A DNA stretch of 64,000 bases, taken from the NCBI GenBank assembly GCA_045544215.1, contig JAZPYM010000076.1, forward strand, positions 3,171-67,170. Direction: 5' to 3'. Positions 1 to 12,562 of the stretch are shown here, piece after piece. The notes beneath the pieces were generated by a model. It did not search any database. It was given only the letters and a program-made list of their open reading frames with translations, and was not told the origin of the DNA. The translations under genes and the position numbers were made by a program. The stretch is from Congzhengia sp. Lineage in GTDB: Bacteria > Bacillota > Clostridia > UBA1381 > UBA9506. The stretch's first letter is position 1. Each line of letters opens with the position of its first letter.

Positions 1-902
1 TTTTGACGAGGGTGTTTGCGTTTCAATATTTGCTTTTGTTTTGCAGTGGAAACATGGGTATATATTTCAGTTGTCGTTATTGAACTATGTCCTAAGATTT
101 GCTGTATATAACGAATATCTACATCTGATTCAAGAAGCATCGTGGCAAAAGTATGTCTAAACATATGCGGTGTTACGTGCACTGTGGATGAAATTTGATT
201 CACATATTTGTTTATCATAAAACGGACGGACTGATCGGAAAGGCGATTTGAAAGTCTGTTTACAAAAAAATATCCTGTATTATCAATTTCAGCCTTAAAG
301 CATTTTTTGTACTGCTTTAAGGCTGTTAGTACATCAGGAGTGCAAATTTGTATTATTCTTTCTTTTGATCCTTTTCCAAAGGTTTTTATATAACTATCCG
401 AAAGATTAACATCATCCGCTTTTAAATTACAGAGTTCCGATACACGAAGTCCGGTTGCGAAAAGAAGTTCTAATACTGCTATATCTCGGATGACGCACCT
501 TTCGGAATATACTGTCTTACATCTTTCTAAAGTATGATAAGCCTCATTCAAAATTTTTGTTAATATCTTTTCGGGAATGATCCGGGGCAGTATAATCGGC
601 TCTTTGATTTTAAGATGAATTTTACTGAATGGATTATCCTCGATAATTTCTTCAAAACTAAGATATTCATAAAAAGCCTTTAATGTGGCAAGTTTCCGTT
701 TAATCGATTTTGGTTTGTATTTTGAATGTAAACTTTCAAGATAACTACATATCAATTCTTTGCTAGAACCTTCTTCCTGTTCTTTTGCATAACTTTTAAA
801 TTGTGATAAATCTATCCGGTAAGCCTTTATTGTTTTTGGGTTCAAACCCTTTTGTAACTCGCAGTAAATCAAATATTTTTCTATTAAAGTATGTAAATTC
901 AT
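1..902 (-). CDS. Tyrosine-type site-specific recombinase/integrase (XerC/XerD-like); C-terminal end runs off the window
   Basis: Absent from the ORF track because it has no stop codon inside the window. My own translation from ATG at 902 (SD AGGAGG about 5 nt upstream) gives [32 protein letters not shown]...[12 protein letters not shown]...[16 protein letters not shown]...[15 protein letters not shown]. This shows the R / HxxR / Y catalytic signature and a core-binding N-terminal domain. Confidence 0.85.
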
Positions 903-972: not shown

Positions 973-1674
973 TCAATTCAGTATTTCTTCAAATTCTTCG
1001 GCAGTAATTTCACCCTTTTTGTATTTCATACGATATTCCATAAGTTCCTTAAGTTTAAGATCAAGAGAATCTTTTTGTTTTTCATCAGCACACTTCTTAT
1101 GCTTGTAGTAGGTTGCCTGATATACTTTATCATATAATAAAAGAAGATTGTCTGCTTGTTTGCTTTCTTTTGAGCGCTTCTTTGCTCCGTACTGCCTGCA
1201 GGCTTCGTTATCGCAATATTCCATAGTAGGATTATCCGCAAGGAAGAATTTTGAGCAACTTCCGCATTTTACGATAGGCATATTATTTGTCAGGGCATAC
1301 ATCATTTCCAAACGAAGAAAATCAAAAAAATCACTCAAATAATACATATCAATGAATTGTATTGTTCCATCGTCATCGATGTTGCCTATGGTCTTAGTTA
1401 CAGAGAATTTTGTTTTGCTTAATTTAAATTCCTCATCGCACAATAAATAACCCTCTATCCTTTTCTTCTTATCCTTGCTTGAAAAACAACGCTCAAGCAT
1501 TTTAGTTGCTTCATCCTTTACTTTTTTCATATCAAGATCTGGAAAGATTGTTTTTAGGTGTGTAGGAGCATCATTGGAAAGAACGCAAGCCGCTCCACCA
1601 ATTGGTACAACATACGAGCCTTTTTCTGTAATGATTTTTTCTTCTCCATGACCAAATACAACTTCAAAATTCAT
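973..1674 (-). CDS. Hypothetical protein with C-terminal Cys cluster and Lys-rich coiled tail
   Basis: 233-aa ORF with motif CGSCSKFF...EYCDNEACRQYG, which looks zinc-ribbon-like. No family recognised by eye. It is co-oriented with the tyrosine recombinase. Confidence 0.6.
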   Translation of the reverse strand: MNFEVVFGHGEEKIITEKGSYVVPIGGAACVLSNDAPTHLKTIFPDLDMKKVKDEATKMLERCFSSKDKKKRIEGYLLCDEEFKLSKTKFSVTKTIGNIDDDGTIQFIDMYYLSDFFDFLRLEMMYALTNNMPIVKCGSCSKFFLADNPTMEYCDNEACRQYGAKKRSKESKQADNLLLLYDKVYQATYYKHKKCADEKQKDSLDLKLKELMEYRMKYKKGEITAEEFEEILN

Positions 1675-2251: not shown

Positions 2252-3874
2252 GTGAGAGGATTTGCATATGGTCGTCTATCAAGAGACGAAGACAGTGAAC
2301 AGGAATCCCTGAAAAATCAGGAAGATTTGGTCGTTGGATTTATGAAGAAAGGGAACCATATAGTTATCGAAATAGGAATGGATGATAACTATACAGGAAT
2401 GGATTTTGACAGACCGGGAATTAAGAGAATGTTCGAGCTTGCAAGAAATGGTGAGATTGATGCGGTATTCGTAAAAGACTTATCTCGACTCGGCAGACAC
2501 CGAACTTTGACTTTGGAATGTATCGATAAGCTCAGGCTCCTTGGAGTCAGGGTTATATCTATAACAGAAAATATTGATAGCTTCAACGAAGCAGATGATT
2601 TAATCATAGGATTCAAAGGACTTATCAATGATAGCTATTCCAAGGATATACAGAGAAAGGTTATATACGGATTCAGACAAAAACAACAAAAAGGTCTTGT
2701 AATGATTCCGCCAATGGGATATTTCAAAGACAAGAACACCAACGAGGTTGTAATTATCGAAGAGCCTGCCGAAATCGTTCGGACGATATTCAAACTTTAT
2801 CTTGAGGGCTACGGCTTAAAGGCAATAGCAAGAATACTGAATGAGAAAGGTATGAAATCCCCTGCATACTATCAGTTAAAGCTGATAGGTAAAAAACAAG
2901 GGCATAATAAACCTAAAATAACAAGCAGGTTCTTGTGGGATTACTCATCGGTCAAAAGAACTTTAAAAAACGAGTTCTACTGCGGAACGGTCGTAAATCA
3001 TCAAAATGAGCGTAGCAGAATTACAAAGCGACAGGTTGCAGTTCCGGTAGAGGAACAGTTCAGGCATGAGGATATGGTCCCGGCAATTATCCCCCGTGAA
3101 ATGTGGGAACGGGTTCAGGAATTCTTGAATGCAAAGGTAAAGAAAAAGGTTCGTGCAAGTGAGAACAAACCTTGCCATAAGTATTCAGGATTGCTACAGT
3201 GTTCGGACTGCGGATGCTCATTCGTAGCAAAGGTCAGAAAGACCAAAGGCAATCCCGACAGAGTTGAATATGTGTGTAATGGTTACCATCGGTACAGTGA
3301 GGTCAACTGCACATCACATAGAATTCGAGAAGAAATGCTCGACAAAATTGTACAAGCCGAGCTTGAAGGGATACGATTGGTATTCGATGACCTATGGGAG
3401 AATGTAGAGGCTGATGTCAAGAAATGGGCAGCAGGAAAATCTACAACAGAGAAAAGGCTCGGAAATCTGAAACAAAGCATTTCGGATACAGAGCTTGAAA
3501 TCCAAAAAATACTTATGGAAAGGATTGAGGATAAGCAGAATACTGATATGTACGATAAGATGATTGAGACAAGGCGAAATGACATTGAGAGCTTCAAAAA
3601 GGAAGTTCATGAGATAGAAAATCTTGATAAAACAATCAAGGATAGGAGATCTACTCTTAAACATTCCATAGAACTGCTCGATGACATCATAGCCGAGAAC
3701 AATATCAGTAATGCAAACCTGCACTTGATGTTTGACAAAATCATCATCGAAGAAACGGACGAAGGATTAAATCTTGACCTGAGATTAAAATCCCCGTTTA
3801 TCAGCAAAGCAAAAGAGTCTTTGCTCAAGAAATATATGATAGTAGATAACCAAGTTTTACAGGAAGGAGCGTGA
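2252..3874 (+). CDS. Large serine recombinase (resolvase/invertase N-terminal domain, recombinase domain, zinc-ribbon, coiled-coil)
   Basis: 540-aa ORF. N-terminus FAYGRLSRDEDSEQESL contains the catalytic Ser context. It also has DAVFVKDLSRLGR, the Cys cluster CSDCGCSF...YVCNGY...CTSH, and a long coiled-coil C-terminus. Confidence 0.9.
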   Translation: MRGFAYGRLSRDEDSEQESLKNQEDLVVGFMKKGNHIVIEIGMDDNYTGMDFDRPGIKRMFELARNGEIDAVFVKDLSRLGRHRTLTLECIDKLRLLGVRVISITENIDSFNEADDLIIGFKGLINDSYSKDIQRKVIYGFRQKQQKGLVMIPPMGYFKDKNTNEVVIIEEPAEIVRTIFKLYLEGYGLKAIARILNEKGMKSPAYYQLKLIGKKQGHNKPKITSRFLWDYSSVKRTLKNEFYCGTVVNHQNERSRITKRQVAVPVEEQFRHEDMVPAIIPREMWERVQEFLNAKVKKKVRASENKPCHKYSGLLQCSDCGCSFVAKVRKTKGNPDRVEYVCNGYHRYSEVNCTSHRIREEMLDKIVQAELEGIRLVFDDLWENVEADVKKWAAGKSTTEKRLGNLKQSISDTELEIQKILMERIEDKQNTDMYDKMIETRRNDIESFKKEVHEIENLDKTIKDRRSTLKHSIELLDDIIAENNISNANLHLMFDKIIIEETDEGLNLDLRLKSPFISKAKESLLKKYMIVDNQVLQEGA

Positions 3875-3878
3875 GAAT

Positions 3879-3989
3879 ATGACAAGAAGAAATGATATGA
3901 AATCAATAATTATTGAACTGATGGACAAGCTGTATCGCGAAGATATTAGCGGAAAAATCAAGCCGTGCAAAAAAGTGAACAAAAAATAA
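3879..3989 (+). CDS. Possible 36-aa ORF translationally coupled to the serine recombinase
   Basis: ATG at 3879 lies 5 nt after the recombinase stop, with GGAAGGAG 9 nt upstream. Translation is MTRRNDMKSIIIELMDKLYREDISGKIKPCKKVNKK. There is no other support. Confidence 0.25.
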   Translation: MTRRNDMKSIIIELMDKLYREDISGKIKPCKKVNKK

Positions 3990-4025
3990 TTGTTCGCATA
4001 GCGATACATCAACACCTAAAACAAC

Positions 4026-4058
4026 AAAACACTTATAGGGAAATCCTATAAGTGTTTT
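4026..4058. terminator. Bidirectional intrinsic terminator between the recombinase operon and tRNA-Leu
   Basis: Sequence aaaaCACTTATAGGgaaatCCTATAAGTGtttt has a 10-bp stem with an A-run on one side and a T-run on the other. Confidence 0.6.
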
Positions 4059-4061
4059 GGG

Positions 4062-4145
4062 TGGTGCGGCTGAAGGGACTTGAACCCCCACGTCATTGAC
4101 ACTAGATCCTAAGTCTAGCGCGTCTGCCAATTCCGCCACAGCCGC
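4062..4145 (-). tRNA. tRNA-Leu, anticodon UAG, encoded CCA
   Basis: The reverse complement reads GCGGCTGTGGCGGAATTGGCAGACGCGCTAGACTTAGGATCTAGTGTCAATGACGTGGGGGTTCAAGTCCCTTCAGCCGCACCA. It has a 7-bp acceptor stem, anticodon loop CTTAGGA, a long variable arm typical of Leu, and a GTTCAAGTC T-loop. Confidence 0.9.
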
Positions 4146-4269
4146 ATATTAAGTTTTACCTCTTAATTTTTACACGGTAGAGGTTGCCCGAGGAGGAGCA
4201 AAAACGCTTAATCCTCATCTATGAAAACGGAAAACCGTAATCAACAATAAATTCACCGAGGTGGATGAA

Positions 4270-4307
4270 CCTAAGTCTAGCGCGTCTGCCAATTCCGCCA
4301 CAGCCGC
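4270..4307 (-). pseudogene. Truncated tRNA-Leu copy (positions 1 to anticodon loop only)
   Basis: Identical to 4108-4145 of the intact gene. It ends inside the anticodon loop (CTTAGG). Confidence 0.8.
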
Positions 4308-4435
4308 ATATTAAGTTTTACCTCTTAATTTTTACACGGTAGAGGTAAACCGAGGAGGAGCAAAAACGCTTAATCCTCATCTATGAAAACGGAAAAACCG
4401 TAATCAACAATTCTTTCACCGAGGTGGATGAAGCA

Positions 4436-4470
4436 AAGTCTAGCGCGTCTGCCAATTCCGCCACATCCGC
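4436..4470 (-). pseudogene. Truncated tRNA-Leu copy (positions 1-35) next to the strong promoter; one acceptor-stem substitution
   Basis: Sequence aagtctagcgcgtctgccaattccgccacaTccgc differs from the intact gene (...cacaGccgc). The change at tRNA position 5 would not pair with the present 3' half. Confidence 0.8.
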
Positions 4471-4491
4471 ATTGTTTCTACAACAACATGC

Positions 4492-4521
4492 ATTATAGCA
4501 CAAGATTAAGGGTTATGTCAA
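4492..4521 (-). promoter_or_regulatory. Strong sigma-70-type promoter reading into the tRNA-fragment array and tRNA-Leu
   Basis: On the minus strand: TTGACA (4521-4516), 18 nt, TGc-TATAAT (4497-4492, extended -10). It lies about 20 nt upstream of the third tRNA 5'-half copy. Confidence 0.6.
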
Positions 4522-4635
4522 GTCTAACTTTGTTTGTTTTTATATTTTGGGAATACGATAAAATCTATTAAAAGCGACAATCAGCCCCATATTCTTTTCT
4601 TTTGTTAGAAAAATGTCTTTTTTTAGAAAAAACAC

Positions 4636-4664
4636 TTGATTTTTGAAACAAAATTTGGTATTCT
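4636..4664 (+). promoter_or_regulatory. Candidate promoter of the XRE regulator gene
   Basis: TTGATT (4636-4641), 17 nt, TATTCT (4659-4664). Confidence 0.45.
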
Positions 4665-4666
4665 AT

Positions 4667-4699
4667 AGTTAAAAGTTCAAGAAACTTGAACTTTTAACT
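4667..4699. promoter_or_regulatory. Perfect 15-bp-arm inverted repeat (operator or 5' UTR hairpin)
   Basis: Sequence AGTTAAAAGTTCAAG-aaa-CTTGAACTTTTAACT lies immediately after the -10 and 25 nt before the XRE start codon. Confidence 0.5.
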
Positions 4700-4724
4700 T
4701 AATCTTACGAATAAGGAGACAGAC

Positions 4725-5105
4725 ATGAGCCAGGAAGAATGTCAGATTTTTGCCAAAAAGTTAAGACAGCTGCGCGTATCAGCGGGGCTGACACAGGAGA
4801 TGCTTGCAAGGATGTTGAATATTTCAAGAAGTTGCCTTGCCAACTATGAGTCGTGCAACAGAATGGTCAACGATGAAATTGTGCAGGATGTTGCAAAATA
4901 TTTTGATGTAAGTGTTGCATATTTAACCGGAAAAGAGAGTGTTCCCACAATGCAAACAAATTCTCACATGCGGGAATTTTCTGAAATTTTATCCAAGAAA
5001 ACGCTGGATATTTCAAATATTTCCTCTGCGGCACGGATTGCCTTGTATGAATTTTATTGCTATTTAACCACGCAGAGCAATTGCAATAGAGAATGCGAGA
5101 GGTAA
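4725..5105 (+). CDS. XRE-family helix-turn-helix transcriptional regulator
   Basis: 126 aa. LRQLRVSAGLTQEMLARMLNISRSCLANYE is a typical Cro/C1 HTH. SD is AAGGAG. Confidence 0.8.
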   Translation: MSQEECQIFAKKLRQLRVSAGLTQEMLARMLNISRSCLANYESCNRMVNDEIVQDVAKYFDVSVAYLTGKESVPTMQTNSHMREFSEILSKKTLDISNISSAARIALYEFYCYLTTQSNCNRECER

Positions 5106-5112
5106 GACCCTC

Positions 5113-6030
5113 TTATAATCGCAACACAGCGTCTAAATTTTCCCGGAAAATTTTGTCGAACTGGGAAAGAGGCAGGGGGTTTTCTCCTTTTCCTACCTCA
5201 ATGGTAAAGGCGGGAATGGAAAATGTATTGATCACCCAGTCTTTGTATCCCGAGCAGTCGGTGATACCCTCGGCGCAAACAAGCTGATAGCCGGTGGCAC
5301 GGGAGAGGGTTTGCGCCAGATTTTGCGCGCCCCGGGGACAAACGCCATTGAAACTGTAGAAAATTTCTTCCCCTTGAGAATGATAGGCAATGACGACGTC
5401 GGGATTTACTTCCTTTGTCAGCTCCACTACAGCTTGTGTTTCCGGCTCGCTTTCTGGCGCTTCTCCGGAATATCGGCTGCTGCAAGGACCGTAAACGCCG
5501 TCTGCAAAAGCAAGGGCGCGCCCCTTTTCAAACAGGGCGTCGTAGTTGTGGTTTAAATCCACACCATCAATATTTGCCTGCCATTTGCCAATGAAATCTT
5601 CGCTTCCGCCATTCATTCCGATTAGTCGCGAACGCTTCATAACAGGAATGTCTTTGGTCAACCCGCGAATGCATAAGTTTACGCCATCGGGGTTTACCAT
5701 GGGGAGAATATAAATTGTGCGGGTGTTAAAAAATGCTACAATGTCGTGTTCGCCCAGTCGCTTTTTTTCAGCAAAAAGGTGGCAGAATGCCTCTGCAATC
5801 GCCATACAGAGCATGGCGGTAATCCATTCTTTTCCGTGGTGTGCTCCTGTTATCATGATTTTGCGGTCCCCTCGCCCCATTCGAAGAAATGGAATGGGTT
5901 TTCCCAATACAGAAAAGCCGGCATTTCCGCCTTCAATACAGGAATAACTGCCGATTAAACGCAAATAATCCTCTTTTAAAATTTCATATGTATATGGCGT
6001 GTTTGTATGTACAATTTGCAATTTCATCAC
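5113..6030 (-). CDS. M14-family zinc carboxypeptidase / gamma-D-glutamyl-diamino acid peptidase-like
   Basis: 305 aa with motifs ITGAHHGKEWIT, NPDG and AYHSQGE, typical of M14 peptidoglycan peptidases. Confidence 0.75.
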   Translation of the reverse strand: MMKLQIVHTNTPYTYEILKEDYLRLIGSYSCIEGGNAGFSVLGKPIPFLRMGRGDRKIMITGAHHGKEWITAMLCMAIAEAFCHLFAEKKRLGEHDIVAFFNTRTIYILPMVNPDGVNLCIRGLTKDIPVMKRSRLIGMNGGSEDFIGKWQANIDGVDLNHNYDALFEKGRALAFADGVYGPCSSRYSGEAPESEPETQAVVELTKEVNPDVVIAYHSQGEEIFYSFNGVCPRGAQNLAQTLSRATGYQLVCAEGITDCSGYKDWVINTFSIPAFTIEVGKGENPLPLSQFDKIFRENLDAVLRL

Positions 6031-9873: not shown

Positions 9874-11273
9874 AATTATATAACACATTAACCAGAAAAA
9901 AAGAAGAATTCATACCACTGGAGCCGGGAAAGGTAAAGATGTATTCCTGCGGACCCACGGTGTATAATTATTTTCATATCGGCAATGCTCGTCCTTTTAT
10001 CATTTTTGATTCTCTCAGACGGTATTTAGAGTACACTGGCTATGAAGTTACCTTTGTGCAGAATTTTACCGATATCGACGATAAGATGATTAAAAATGCC
10101 AACGAGCAGGGCATTACTGTCAAGGAATTGGCAGACCGCTTTATTGCAGAATATTTCAAGGATGCTAAGGGCCTGGGCATTAAAGAAGCAACCATTCATC
10201 CCAAAGCTACAGAAAATATAGATGCCATTATCAAGACGGTAAAAACCCTTGTAGATAACGGCTATGCATATGAATCAAACGGCGATGTTTATTTTGAAAC
10301 CAAAAAGTTTAAAGAGTACGGAAAGCTTTCCAAACAACCGTTGGAGGACCTGGAAGCAGGCGCACGGATTGATGTGACAGAAGTGAAGAAAAACCCCACT
10401 GACTTTGCACTTTGGAAAGCGAAGAAAGAAGGAGAACCCTTCTGGGAAAGCCCCTGGAGTGAAGGTCGTCCCGGCTGGCACATTGAGTGCTCTGCTATGG
10501 TTAATAAATATCTGGGTGAAACCATTGACATTCATTCCGGTGGACAGGACTTGATTTTCCCCCACCATGAAAATGAAATTGCACAAAGTGAATGTGCCAA
10601 CGGCAAGCCCTTTGCGCGCTACTGGTTGCACAACGGATATATCAATGTTGACAACGAAAAAATGTCCAAATCCAAGGGCAACTTTTTCACGGTTCGTGAT
10701 GTGGCAAAAAAATATGATTACGAGGTTATTCGTTTCTTTATGCTCAGCGCACACTACAGAAGCGTGATTAATTTTGCAGACGAATTGTTGGCGCAGTCCA
10801 AAGCAGGTCTTGCCCGGCTTTACAACTGCCTTTATAATTTAGAATTCATGGCAGAAAAATCAAAAAAACGGGAACTTACCGAAACAGAAGTTAAAATAAA
10901 GGAAGAAATTTTGGCATTTCAACAACAGTTCTGTCAGGCAATGGATGATGATTTAAACACGGCAGATGCCATTGCGGCAATGTTTGATCTGGTAAAATAC
11001 TTAAACAGTGCCGAAAAAGAAGTGTGGCCGAAAGATTTGTTTGATACAGCTATCGACCTGCTTCGTGAACTTGGCAATGTTTTGGGAATATTTCAGCGGA
11101 ATCAGGAGGATACTATTCCTGAAGAAGCAAAAGCCTTGATAGCGGAACGAAAAGCAGCCCGGGAAGAAAAGAACTGGGCAAAAGCTGACCAACTTCGTGA
11201 TGATTTGCTTGCCATGGGCATTGAGGTTGCAGACACTCGCCAGGGCATGAAAATCAGAGTGTTGGAGAAATGA
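9870..11273 (+). CDS. cysS: Cysteine--tRNA ligase
   Basis: 467 aa with HIGN and KMSKSKGN class-I motifs. Confidence 0.95.
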
Positions 11274-11686
11274 ATATCAAAACCATCTTAAAGGATGGAA
11301 ACATACCGGATGTGCGGGAGCTGTCCTCTCTTTCCCTGGCGTTTGTGGGGGACAGTGTTTACGAGCTGTTTGTGCGAACAAAAATTCTGCAGGGTGGAAA
11401 TCGCCCTGCAAACGAGCTACATAAAATTGCCGTAGGCTATGTAAAAGCAAAGGCACAGAGCATCGCAATTCGAGGAATTTTAGATGATTTGACAGAAGAA
11501 GAGGTTGCCATTTATAAACGGGGCAGAAATACCCACATTCATACAGTGCCAAAAAATGCCGATATGAATGACTACCGACAGGCAACGGGGCTGGAAGCTT
11601 TGGTGGGATATCTGTATCTTACCGGGCAGACCGAACGACTGGATGCGGTGCTGGAGGCCGCTTTTGCTGCAATTAGCCGGGCGTAG
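11270..11686 (+). CDS. mrnC: Mini-ribonuclease III
   Basis: 138 aa. LAFVGDSVYELFVR is the RNase III-like signature. It has the conserved position directly after cysS. Confidence 0.85.
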   Translation: MNIKTILKDGNIPDVRELSSLSLAFVGDSVYELFVRTKILQGGNRPANELHKIAVGYVKAKAQSIAIRGILDDLTEEEVAIYKRGRNTHIHTVPKNADMNDYRQATGLEALVGYLYLTGQTERLDAVLEAAFAAISRA

Positions 11687-11695
11687 CTCGGAGGA

Positions 11696-12562
11696 ATGAA
11701 TTTGAAACGCAAAAAGCTGCTTTATTTTCTTAGGATTTATGGAGAAATTGTGTTTGGCACGCTGCTTGCCGCCTTGGCAATCAACTTGTTTTTAAAGCCA
11801 CATGCGGTGGTGTCCGGCGGTGCCTCTGGTGTGGCAATTCTGGTGAATCGCTTAACCGGCTTTCCCATTGGCGTTTTTATGCTTTTGGTCAACATTCCCC
11901 TGTTCCTTTTGGGGATTATCTTTATGGGCAAGGGCTTTGGAATCCGCTCCTTTGTGGGCACGGTGCTGTTTTCCGCTTTTACGGATATGACGGCGGTGCT
12001 TCCCGGTCTTACTGAGAATATGATGATGGCATCGGTGTTTGGCGGCTTTTTGTTTGGTATTGGATTTGGCGTTCTTTTTGTGGCAGGTGCCACAAGTGGC
12101 GGCACAGATATTTTGGCAGTTTTAGGGCATAAGGCGGTGCCTGCTATTGATGTTGGAAAATGGATATTTTTTATAGACTTTGTGATTATTTCCGTTGGTG
12201 CATACTTTTTTCGCAACACTGAGTTGGTGCTGGCAGGTATATTAACACTGTTTATCAGTGTGACGGCAGTAGATTATGTGATTTCCGGTGCCAATATTGC
12301 AAAAATTGTATACATTGTTTCAGATAAAAGCGAAATCATTGCAGAGGAAATTATGAAACGGGTGGCGCGGGGCGTCACAGGGATTTATACCCGCGGGATG
12401 TATGTGAAGGAAAACCGAACCATGCTAATGTGTGTTGTGAAACGGTTTGAACTCCGGAAACTGGAGCAAATCGTAAACGAAAACGACCCGAATGCGTTTT
12501 TGATTTATGCACAGGCACGCCGTGTAGCAGGGGAAGGTTTTACGATAAATTCATCACAATAA
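11696..12562 (+). CDS. YitT-family membrane protein (C-terminal DUF2179-type domain)
   Basis: 288 aa, multi-TM with GGTD motifs, and a soluble C-terminal domain. Confidence 0.8.
   Translation: MNLKRKKLLYFLRIYGEIVFGTLLAALAINLFLKPHAVVSGGASGVAILVNRLTGFPIGVFMLLVNIPLFLLGIIFMGKGFGIRSFVGTVLFSAFTDMTAVLPGLTENMMMASVFGGFLFGIGFGVLFVAGATSGGTDILAVLGHKAVPAIDVGKWIFFIDFVIISVGAYFFRNTELVLAGILTLFISVTAVDYVISGANIAKIVYIVSDKSEIIAEEIMKRVARGVTGIYTRGMYVKENRTMLMCVVKRFELRKLEQIVNENDPNAFLIYAQARRVAGEGFTINSSQ

Follow-up and report, generated by a model that had tools for sequence, protein, structure and literature searches.

Why a complete tRNA-Leu(UAG) gene should be preceded by a tandem array of its own 5′ halves, all of them downstream of one strong promoter, is the question raised by a stretch of DNA from the Clostridia genome Congzhengia sp. 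(assembly GCA_045544215.1, contig JAZPYM010000076.1). Coordinates refer to this 64-kb stretch as a whole, hereafter the window, and the array is described on its minus strand. A sequence-only reading had drawn attention to the locus, and all of its coordinates and its description of the array were reproduced. The answer developed here is built on the architecture of the array, its junctions, the boundary between host and element DNA and the independent origin of the two spacers. With a probability of about 0.8, the array is a stack of attL junctions from integrative elements of a large serine recombinase (LSR), which would split the anticodon loop of tRNA-Leu and would each bring a spare tRNA.

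The array begins with the host tRNA-Leu promoter, TTGACA-18-TGcTATAAT (4492-4521), which scores 12/12 against the consensus, carries the upstream TG of an extended −10 element and is the sole promoter-like site detected by a consensus scan within 3900-4750. The first half copy starts 21 nt downstream (4436-4470) and comprises positions 1-35 of the tRNA, matching the complete gene except for a C5>A substitution. Its acceptor strand, GCGGATG, cannot pair with the present 3′ half, CAGCCGC, and the copy is best read as the B arm of a first attL, ending in a TT crossover at 4437-4436. Spacer 1 (4308-4435, 128 bp) opens with the P′ arm TGCTTCATCCACCTCGGTGAA at 4435-4415 and is read as the end of the first-arrived element. 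The second 5′ half (4273-4307) has the acceptor strand GCGGCTG and is split at the TT at 4274-4273. Counted as 38 nt (4307-4270) it is identical to the complete tRNA throughout, the match reaching 4270 because the next P′ arm starts with AGG, and the inner spacer then measures 124 nt. This half is best read as the first element's own spare tRNA-Leu, split by a second element, and spacer 2 (4146-4272, 127 bp, P′ arm AGGTTCATCCACCTCGGTGAA at 4272-4252) as the end of that second, resident element. The complete tRNA-Leu(UAG) follows at 4062-4145, with an encoded CCA, an ARAGORN call and an Rfam tRNA score of 57 bits. It is best read as an element-borne working copy that is at the same time an intact attB (TT at 4112-4111). 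The intrinsic terminator of the tRNA, of a type found on the elements, lies at 4025-4059 and consists of a 15-bp stem followed by a T run. The tandem repeat unit is 163/162 bp, the half-plus-spacer units are not called as tRNAs by ARAGORN, and the window contains exactly three instances of a 29-nt core from the half, 0 being expected from 100 shuffles.

In the mechanism proposed here the LSR would recombine an attP site, TTCACCGAGGTGnATnAAGCA-TT-TGCTTCATCCACCTCGGTGAA, with an attB that lies within the tRNA-Leu(UAG) anticodon loop, the strands being exchanged at the TT of tRNA positions 33-34; catalysis would presumably be by the LSR encoded beside the array. Because attP shares only 2 bp with attB, the element could not rebuild the split tRNA as tyrosine-integrase islands do. 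Instead, a complete tRNA-Leu(UAG) gene and its terminator would travel with the element, set about 128 bp in from the P′ end, and what appears as a spacer would be the stretch between the element end, i.e. the P′ arm, and the carried tRNA gene. After a single integration, the host promoter and host 5′ half would be followed by the 128-bp element end, the spare tRNA with its terminator, the LSR gene and the cargo, and last by the P arm and the displaced host 3′ half. The spare tRNA would be a new intact attB, into which a second related element could insert, nested inside the first. Each new insertion would add one unit of 5′ half and spacer on the promoter side and push the body of the older element farther off, and 5′ halves would accumulate on the promoter side because the newcomer inserts into the spare tRNA of the previous element. 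In the window, the outer unit (4470-4308) would comprise the host half and the end of the first element, and the inner unit (4307-4146) the tRNA half of the first element and the end of the resident one, which would include the tRNA at 4145-4062 and the LSR gene at 2252-3874. The older element would either still lie beyond the left edge of the window or have since been deleted.

Nested insertion of this kind would account for the break in the anticodon loop, the duplication of 5′ rather than 3′ halves, the fixed short spacer and the acceptor mismatch of the outer copy. The excision scars suggested in the sequence-only reading are not needed, since the spacer of about 125 bp would simply reach from the element end to the carried tRNA. 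For the element in the window, the model anticipates a far-end junction of the form ...GGTGnATnAAGCA-TT-AGGATCTAG..., with a 3′ half ending CATCCGCACCA. Should the older element persist, there would be a second junction with a CAGCCGCACCA-type half, a terminator and an LSR gene. Excision would yield attP as AAGCA-TT-TGCTTCATCC or AAGCA-TT-AGGTTCATCC, together with a repaired attB.

The junctions themselves carry much of this interpretation. In 16 of 17 type-A units of half and spacer, tRNA identity ends at ...GA(C/T)TT and is followed by TGCTTCATCCACCTCGGTGAA; the junction variant in the type-A unit of locus L068 is TGTTTCCACCACCTCGGTGAA. Type-B inner spacers start with AGGTTCCGTCCTGTATGTGA, and the inner spacer of the window is intermediate, with AGGTTCATCCACC. 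The far junction was predicted beforehand from the P′ arm as its reverse complement followed by TT-AGGATCTAG, and three independent instances were found. One is shared by L070 and L073, which hold TTCACCGAGGTGTATAAAGCA-TT-AGGATCTAGTGGTACTCCCGTGCAGGTTCAAGTCCTGTCATCCGCACCA and then a terminator, about 7.7 kb from the tRNA on the LSR side. In L070 the P arm, TT and 3′ half occupy 4207-4238, the LSR gene 10001-11623 and the tRNA begins at 11852, so that attL and attR flank an element with the LSR near one end. A scan of metagenomes with the pattern CACCGAGGTG-N9-TTAGGATCTAG gave two further independent junctions, L074 and L075, each with its own 3′ half and terminator and with host-like genes beyond. 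That a displaced 3′ half should exist at the far end of the element had been proposed from the array alone, and in these relatives it does.

The displaced 3′ half in L070 ends CATCCGCACCA. Its partner by base pairing is GCGGATG, the host-type outer half of L060, L068 and the window, and not the tRNA of its own element (GCGCCTG...CAGGCGC). When host 5′ and displaced 3′ halves were rejoined in silico, ARAGORN called a tRNA-Leu(UAG). The promoter-proximal copy with C5>A had been taken for an ancestral host half, and this pairing, with the end of homology described below, bears that out. In L075, the far-end junction (2760-5190) has the same P-arm core and lies beside small-terminase-like and radical SAM genes; this tRNA-Leu site may also serve phage-like or satellite elements.

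The attachment sites deduced from these junctions are attB GAC-TT-AGG and attP GCA-TT-TGC, which have only the TT in common, and correspondingly attL is GAC-TT-TGC and attR is GCA-TT-AGG. The P′ arm is without similarity to the tRNA 3′ half. Sites of LSRs on the attP side are quasi-palindromic around a 2-bp crossover, and the reconstructed attP, TTCACCGAGGTGnATnAAGCA-TT-TGCTTCATCCACCTCGGTGAA, is symmetric around the TT at 19 of 21 positions. Identity confined to TT and a near-palindromic attP are hallmarks of a serine recombinase and not of a tyrosine integrase. The suspicion that the anticodon-loop break marks an integrase crossover was thus correct as to the site, which the attL and attR sequences place at the TT of positions 33-34. 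The enzyme here belongs to the large serine family and is not one of the tyrosine integrases common at tRNA genes.

Several observations weigh against this interpretation. The reconstructed attP joins arms from different copies of the element, and no circular form was found. The three bases beside the TT differ between the two units of the window (TGC vs AGG). The far end of the element lies outside the window, which shows only 4 kb of it and the attL side alone, and attR is seen only in relatives. A natural empty site, with an intact host tRNA and both host flanks, was not recovered among the relatives examined, and a junction of a nested element, in which the P arm and TT would be followed by an element-type 3′ half, terminator and LSR gene, was not found in the sequences examined. 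L079 carries the element with zero spacers. L044 pairs an LSR of the window type with a type-B spacer, and its tRNA body is host-like beside a terminator of the element type. A metagenome scan for the promoter-leader of the window itself, aimed at strains with an empty site, gave no match, and relatives sharing the host locus by their M14 homologue offered no clean empty site either: L076 ends inside the tRNA-Leu 5′ half and L078 has no tRNA there. Contig breaks after multi-unit arrays were considered as evidence of tandem elements and set aside, the numbers being too small.

The boundary between host and element was located by comparison between genomes. Homology extends as far as the 5′ boundary of the outermost half, about position 4472 in the window, and no farther. 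Upstream of it each genome has its own flank and its own strong consensus promoter, and the outermost half itself has genome-specific bases in the acceptor or anticodon stem. L079 shares the M23-M14-XRE synteny of the window, and its host genes are 68-72% identical to those of the window, whereas the side with tRNA, terminator and LSR gene is 95.8% identical. From the end of homology, the unique flanks and this contrast in identity it follows that the promoter and outer half are host DNA and that all DNA leftwards from the spacer moves horizontally. The same contrast agrees with the proposal that the working tRNA body was imported. The G+C content also differs, 36% left of 4472 on the element side against 43% on the host side to the right.

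The origin of the two spacers is of particular importance, since a simpler account of the array can be given. After a single LSR integration, the 35-nt direct repeats may have given rise to the second unit locally, whether through unequal homologous recombination or through slippage during replication. Direct repeats of 35-38 nt, 163 bp apart, are good substrates for such events, the zero-spacer state of L079 at a syntenic locus is the reciprocal product expected of unequal exchange, and L044 indicates that a given spacer type need not go with a given LSR type. A fresh duplicate would, however, be nearly identical to its source, whereas the window spacers differ at nine aligned positions. Spacer 1 is only 1 nt away from the L016 spacer and 2 nt away from that of L001, both from other species, and the nearest relative of spacer 2 is the first unit of L029, with five differences. 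L003 has four inner halves with different acceptor stems, and its spacers alternate between types A and B. Because the two spacers are closer to those of other genomes than to each other, and because of the variety of stems and types in L003, the comparison favours independent arrivals for the two window spacers, and duplication within the array is an unlikely source of the second unit. Amplification of a 163-bp unit, one of the explanations raised at first, is not favoured for the same reason. Stacking of elements is not the only process in these arrays, since the zero-spacer state of L079 and the mixed types of L044 make it clear that homologous exchange between the 35-nt repeats also reshapes them. 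The complete tRNA of L044, whose array holds units u1-u4, has the anticodon stem of the outer halves and a T-arm like that of the displaced host half in L070, a mixture suggesting that host and element tRNAs have recombined or undergone gene conversion with each other.

The distribution of the module was determined by an exact scan of one genome per species with the first 18 nt of the spacer as query. Of the 59 loci retrieved, 11 belong to species-level metagenome-assembled genomes of Clostridia with the whole module, and the remaining 48 are chance matches in unrelated genomes. With the contigs found otherwise, the module is present in at least 13 Clostridia genomes with between zero and four spacers, and all loci align in register as 5′ half and spacer of about 125 nt, repeated n times, followed by the complete tRNA-Leu(UAG). 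One spacer is found in L001, L016, L036, L040, L057 and L058 and in the Congzhengia contigs L060 and L068; two in the window and L004; at least two in L029, where the contig ends; three in L019 and L044; four in L003; and none in L079. Homologues of the LSR, 45-98% identical, adjoin the 3′ end of the tRNA in eight of the 11 loci of the first scan, while the contigs of L003, L029 and L040 end before reaching the LSR position. Wherever a locus extends far enough, loci found by way of the LSR included, the recombinase gene is convergent with the tRNA, and the element-type terminator is kept beside it in L001, L016, L036, L044, L057, L058, L060 and L079. Comparison with related genomes, each with its own host flanks, thus agrees with the earlier supposition of a mobile element left of the array, in the form of an LSR module that recurs across Clostridia.

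The cargo, of a kind usual for mobile islands, differs even where the recombinase is the same or nearly the same, as was seen over the 10 kb left of the LSR in L060, L068 and L070. L060 carries type ISP/IIG restriction enzymes and a RES toxin, and L068 carries FHA, radical SAM, AAA, PP2C and DUF4236 genes. The small element of L070 and L073 holds a DnaD-like Rep, a MobL relaxase, AbiEi/AbiEii, DUF2971 and the LSR. Relaxase and Rep thus stand alongside the LSR in L070 and L073, and L060 and L068 show only defence-type cargo within the 10 kb. Because the same recombinase carries quite different cargo, the module of att site, LSR and tRNA behaves as an integration cassette that defence and mobilization genes share. 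In phage and plasmid collections only the tRNA itself was matched, and viral contigs gave neither a spacer match nor a relative of the LSR. A unit of another kind was observed in L019 (units u2-u3, minus strand, about 2170-2450 in plus-strand coordinates), where the repeat is 279 nt long with a spacer of about 240 nt. It starts with a type-B P′ arm, continues into an unrelated stretch with a short cysteine-rich open reading frame, and is evidently the end of a different element family.

The recombinase of the window is encoded at 2252-3874 on the plus strand and converges on the tRNA. Its product of 540 aa, equal in length to its homologues, matches the Resolvase (PF00239), Recombinase (PF07508) and Zn_ribbon_recom (PF13408) domains and has the catalytic-serine motif YGRLS at residues 6-10, and it is presumed to be the integrase of the element. 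Directly after its stop codon, and with a good ribosome-binding site, a 36-aa open reading frame (3879-3989, plus strand) is called, as is a short one at the equivalent place in L060 and L068; it could be a candidate accessory or directionality factor. A DUF6076 gene (973-1674, minus strand), a frequent neighbour of this recombinase, is part of the element, and neither its product nor the LSR had a PADLOC match. To the right of the array lie ordinary chromosomal genes, among them those for an XRE regulator and M14 and M23 peptidases, tgt and cysE. A perfect inverted repeat of 15 bp, AGTTAAAAGTTCAAG/CTTGAACTTTTAACT, is situated at 4667-4699, between the host tRNA promoter and the start of the XRE gene, and a similar motif, TTCAAG(T/A)(T/T)TCTTGAAC, is found at the equivalent position in L076 and L079. 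It is likely to be an XRE operator.

Transcription of the spare tRNA was considered next to the possibility that the array is itself a functional locus. No promoter was detected by the consensus scan inside either spacer on either strand, so the alternative that an unrecognised spacer promoter drives the tRNA found no backing; two hand-picked candidates, TTGATT-17/18-TAGATG and TGTAAAAAT, were weak. There is also no terminator within the array before the one at 4059-4025. With no promoter in the spacers and no terminator in the way, transcription of the spare tRNA most likely begins at the captured host promoter, and ordinary 5′ processing would then free the tRNA from a leader of about 325 nt. 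Short open reading frames antisense to the spacer and half were looked at by eye and set aside.

With a consensus promoter ahead of it and no intervening terminator, the array is almost certainly transcribed, and one may ask whether the halves and spacers form a selected RNA locus, acting as regulators, anticodon-nuclease decoys or a processing platform. The high conservation of the spacer would fit such a role, as would the folding of the whole leader, which is modestly better than that of shuffled sequences (z = −2.35). The 22 distinct spacers align almost gap-free, and an ACGG/CCGT hairpin is invariant in all 22 (alignment columns 35-48; window 4401-4389 and 4238-4227), with a T run after the hairpin and a loop that differs between copies both in length and in sequence. 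The hairpin may serve as a weak attenuator or to bind a protein. Spacer conservation is, however, no higher than that of the adjoining recombinase DNA, and a compensatory change is seen at just one of the 22 pairs predicted by RNAalifold, where it follows the split between the A and B lineages. Rfam at a permissive threshold matched nothing but the tRNA itself, copy number ranges from zero to four, and the inner half of unit L044_u3 has substitutions at D-arm positions that are invariant in every other copy. Recombination sites would moreover explain all of the features. A selected half-tRNA RNA product has no support in these data, and the functional array of 5′ tRNA halves once envisaged for this locus is improbable. 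About 100 nt beyond the P′ arm are nevertheless strongly conserved. In L070 the ribosome-binding site of rep begins 33 nt from the P arm, so the spacer would sit just upstream of rep in a circular form, and it is possible that it holds a circularization-dependent promoter or an accessory site.

It is also conceivable that the copies are classical tyrosine-integrase scars, formed through an identity segment in the anticodon loop, for instance by the enzyme of a partial gene at the left edge of the window. This gene, with Phage_int_SAM_1 and Phage_integrase domains, starts at 902 on the minus strand and runs off the window (1-902), and the anticodon loop is the commonest sublocation of tyrosine integrases in tRNA genes (PMC4383910). 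The sites share 2 bp, however, and not the overlap of at least 7 bp and block of tRNA identity that are typical of tyrosine systems, and the tRNA is not rebuilt from an element-borne fragment, its replacement being a separate complete gene. No tyrosine recombinase was found in the 10 kb beside the tRNA in L060, L068 or L070, where the LSR is constant. Scars of this type are accordingly a remote prospect. Because similarity to the related elements L001 and L036 ends at about 1006, before the tyrosine recombinase gene, the fragment is variable cargo or another nested element. An assembly artefact is very unlikely and close to negligible. Short-read assemblies do often mishandle 160-bp tandem repeats, and many contigs of relatives stop within the array or directly behind it, but nine spacer differences and C5>A tell the units apart, and other species show the same ordered architecture in many independent assemblies. 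The exact number of copies in the window genome rests on a single assembly.

The stack of LSR junctions may be compared with several known systems. Islands of tyrosine integrases restore the target gene with a fragment, usually its 3′ part (3760 of 3919 islands), and according to that work no other class of integrase was known to use tRNA and tmRNA genes as targets (PMC4383910). The tRNA target, the crossover in the anticodon loop, the tandem arrays and the displaced fragment at the far end are common to those islands and to the elements described here. The elements here differ from them in the enzyme family, in an attP without tRNA identity beyond the TT and in the separate, complete replacement gene. 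The nearest precedent is offered by the ssrA islands of Dehalococcoides, in which a DsiB/CcrB-like serine recombinase inserts in the T-loop of tmRNA near the 3′ end. There the gene is restored by a 20-bp direct repeat, 3′ fragments accumulate downstream and a second small serine recombinase, DsiA, is present (PMC3146451). Both are islands of serine recombinases stacked at the gene of a small structured RNA, with repeated fragments, variable cargo and a likeness to integrative and mobilizable elements (IMEs). Unlike the ssrA islands, the elements here use a tRNA anticodon loop and a 2-bp repeat and restore nothing but bring a whole spare tRNA; 5′ halves with a 125-nt element end accumulate upstream, and a single LSR is found, with no counterpart of DsiA seen.

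IMEs with serine recombinases integrate inside genes dispensable to the host, with very short flanking repeats, and in Firmicutes these are rumA or genes that belong to integrative and conjugative elements (ICEs) (PMC5704250). An LSR, a specific site within a gene and a 2-bp crossover are features of gene-interrupting serine IMEs and prophages alike, as they are here, and Rep/Mob modules are shared in the case of L070. Well-known elements that interrupt genes by means of serine recombinases are A118 in comK, SPbeta in spsM and skin in sigK. The genes interrupted in known cases are, according to the review of IMEs (PMC5704250), dispensable or restored only upon excision, whereas the tRNA here would be compensated by the element's own copy, which is also a portable attB. 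Gut Firmicutes commonly harbour tandem ('accretion') and nested ('matryoshka') ICE and IME composites (PMC12084326), and these resemble the present arrays in the repeated arrivals at one att site and in the frequency of remnants and deletions. Those composites use att sites that flank the resident, whereas here the complete target gene lies inside the resident and each event has a fixed footprint of 163 bp. A large survey of LSRs and their att sites leaves tRNA unmentioned in its main text (PMC10083194). The open-access literature searched yielded no account of an LSR element which both breaks a tRNA gene in the anticodon loop and brings an entire spare tRNA, an absence that does not prove novelty.

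Targeting of tRNA genes, classic for islands of tyrosine integrases, would with these elements extend to large serine recombinases, and the disruption of a needed gene would be met by a different solution, in which a full replacement is brought and not a matching fragment. One may speculate, tentatively, that the spare tRNA is a selected strategy, by which tRNA-Leu(UAG) is held hostage, a strong host promoter is captured and a portable attB recruits nested elements. If this is true, and if tRNA-Leu(UAG) is single-copy, any loss other than precise excision by the LSR would remove the only working copy, in effect an addiction without a toxin. Nested composite islands of defence and mobilization genes would then travel together, and the stacked 5′ halves would record the order of their arrival. 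Island finders and tRNA annotators would reject or misread arrays of 5′ halves with fixed spacers of about 125 nt, although such arrays can be read as a chronology of integration. A family of LSRs with a defined attP of about 45 bp and a natural attB in a conserved tRNA could also aid the genetics of gut Clostridia. For the Clostridia themselves, the array sites would mark where cargo is exchanged, including restriction-modification enzymes, the RES toxin, AbiE and other defence-like genes.

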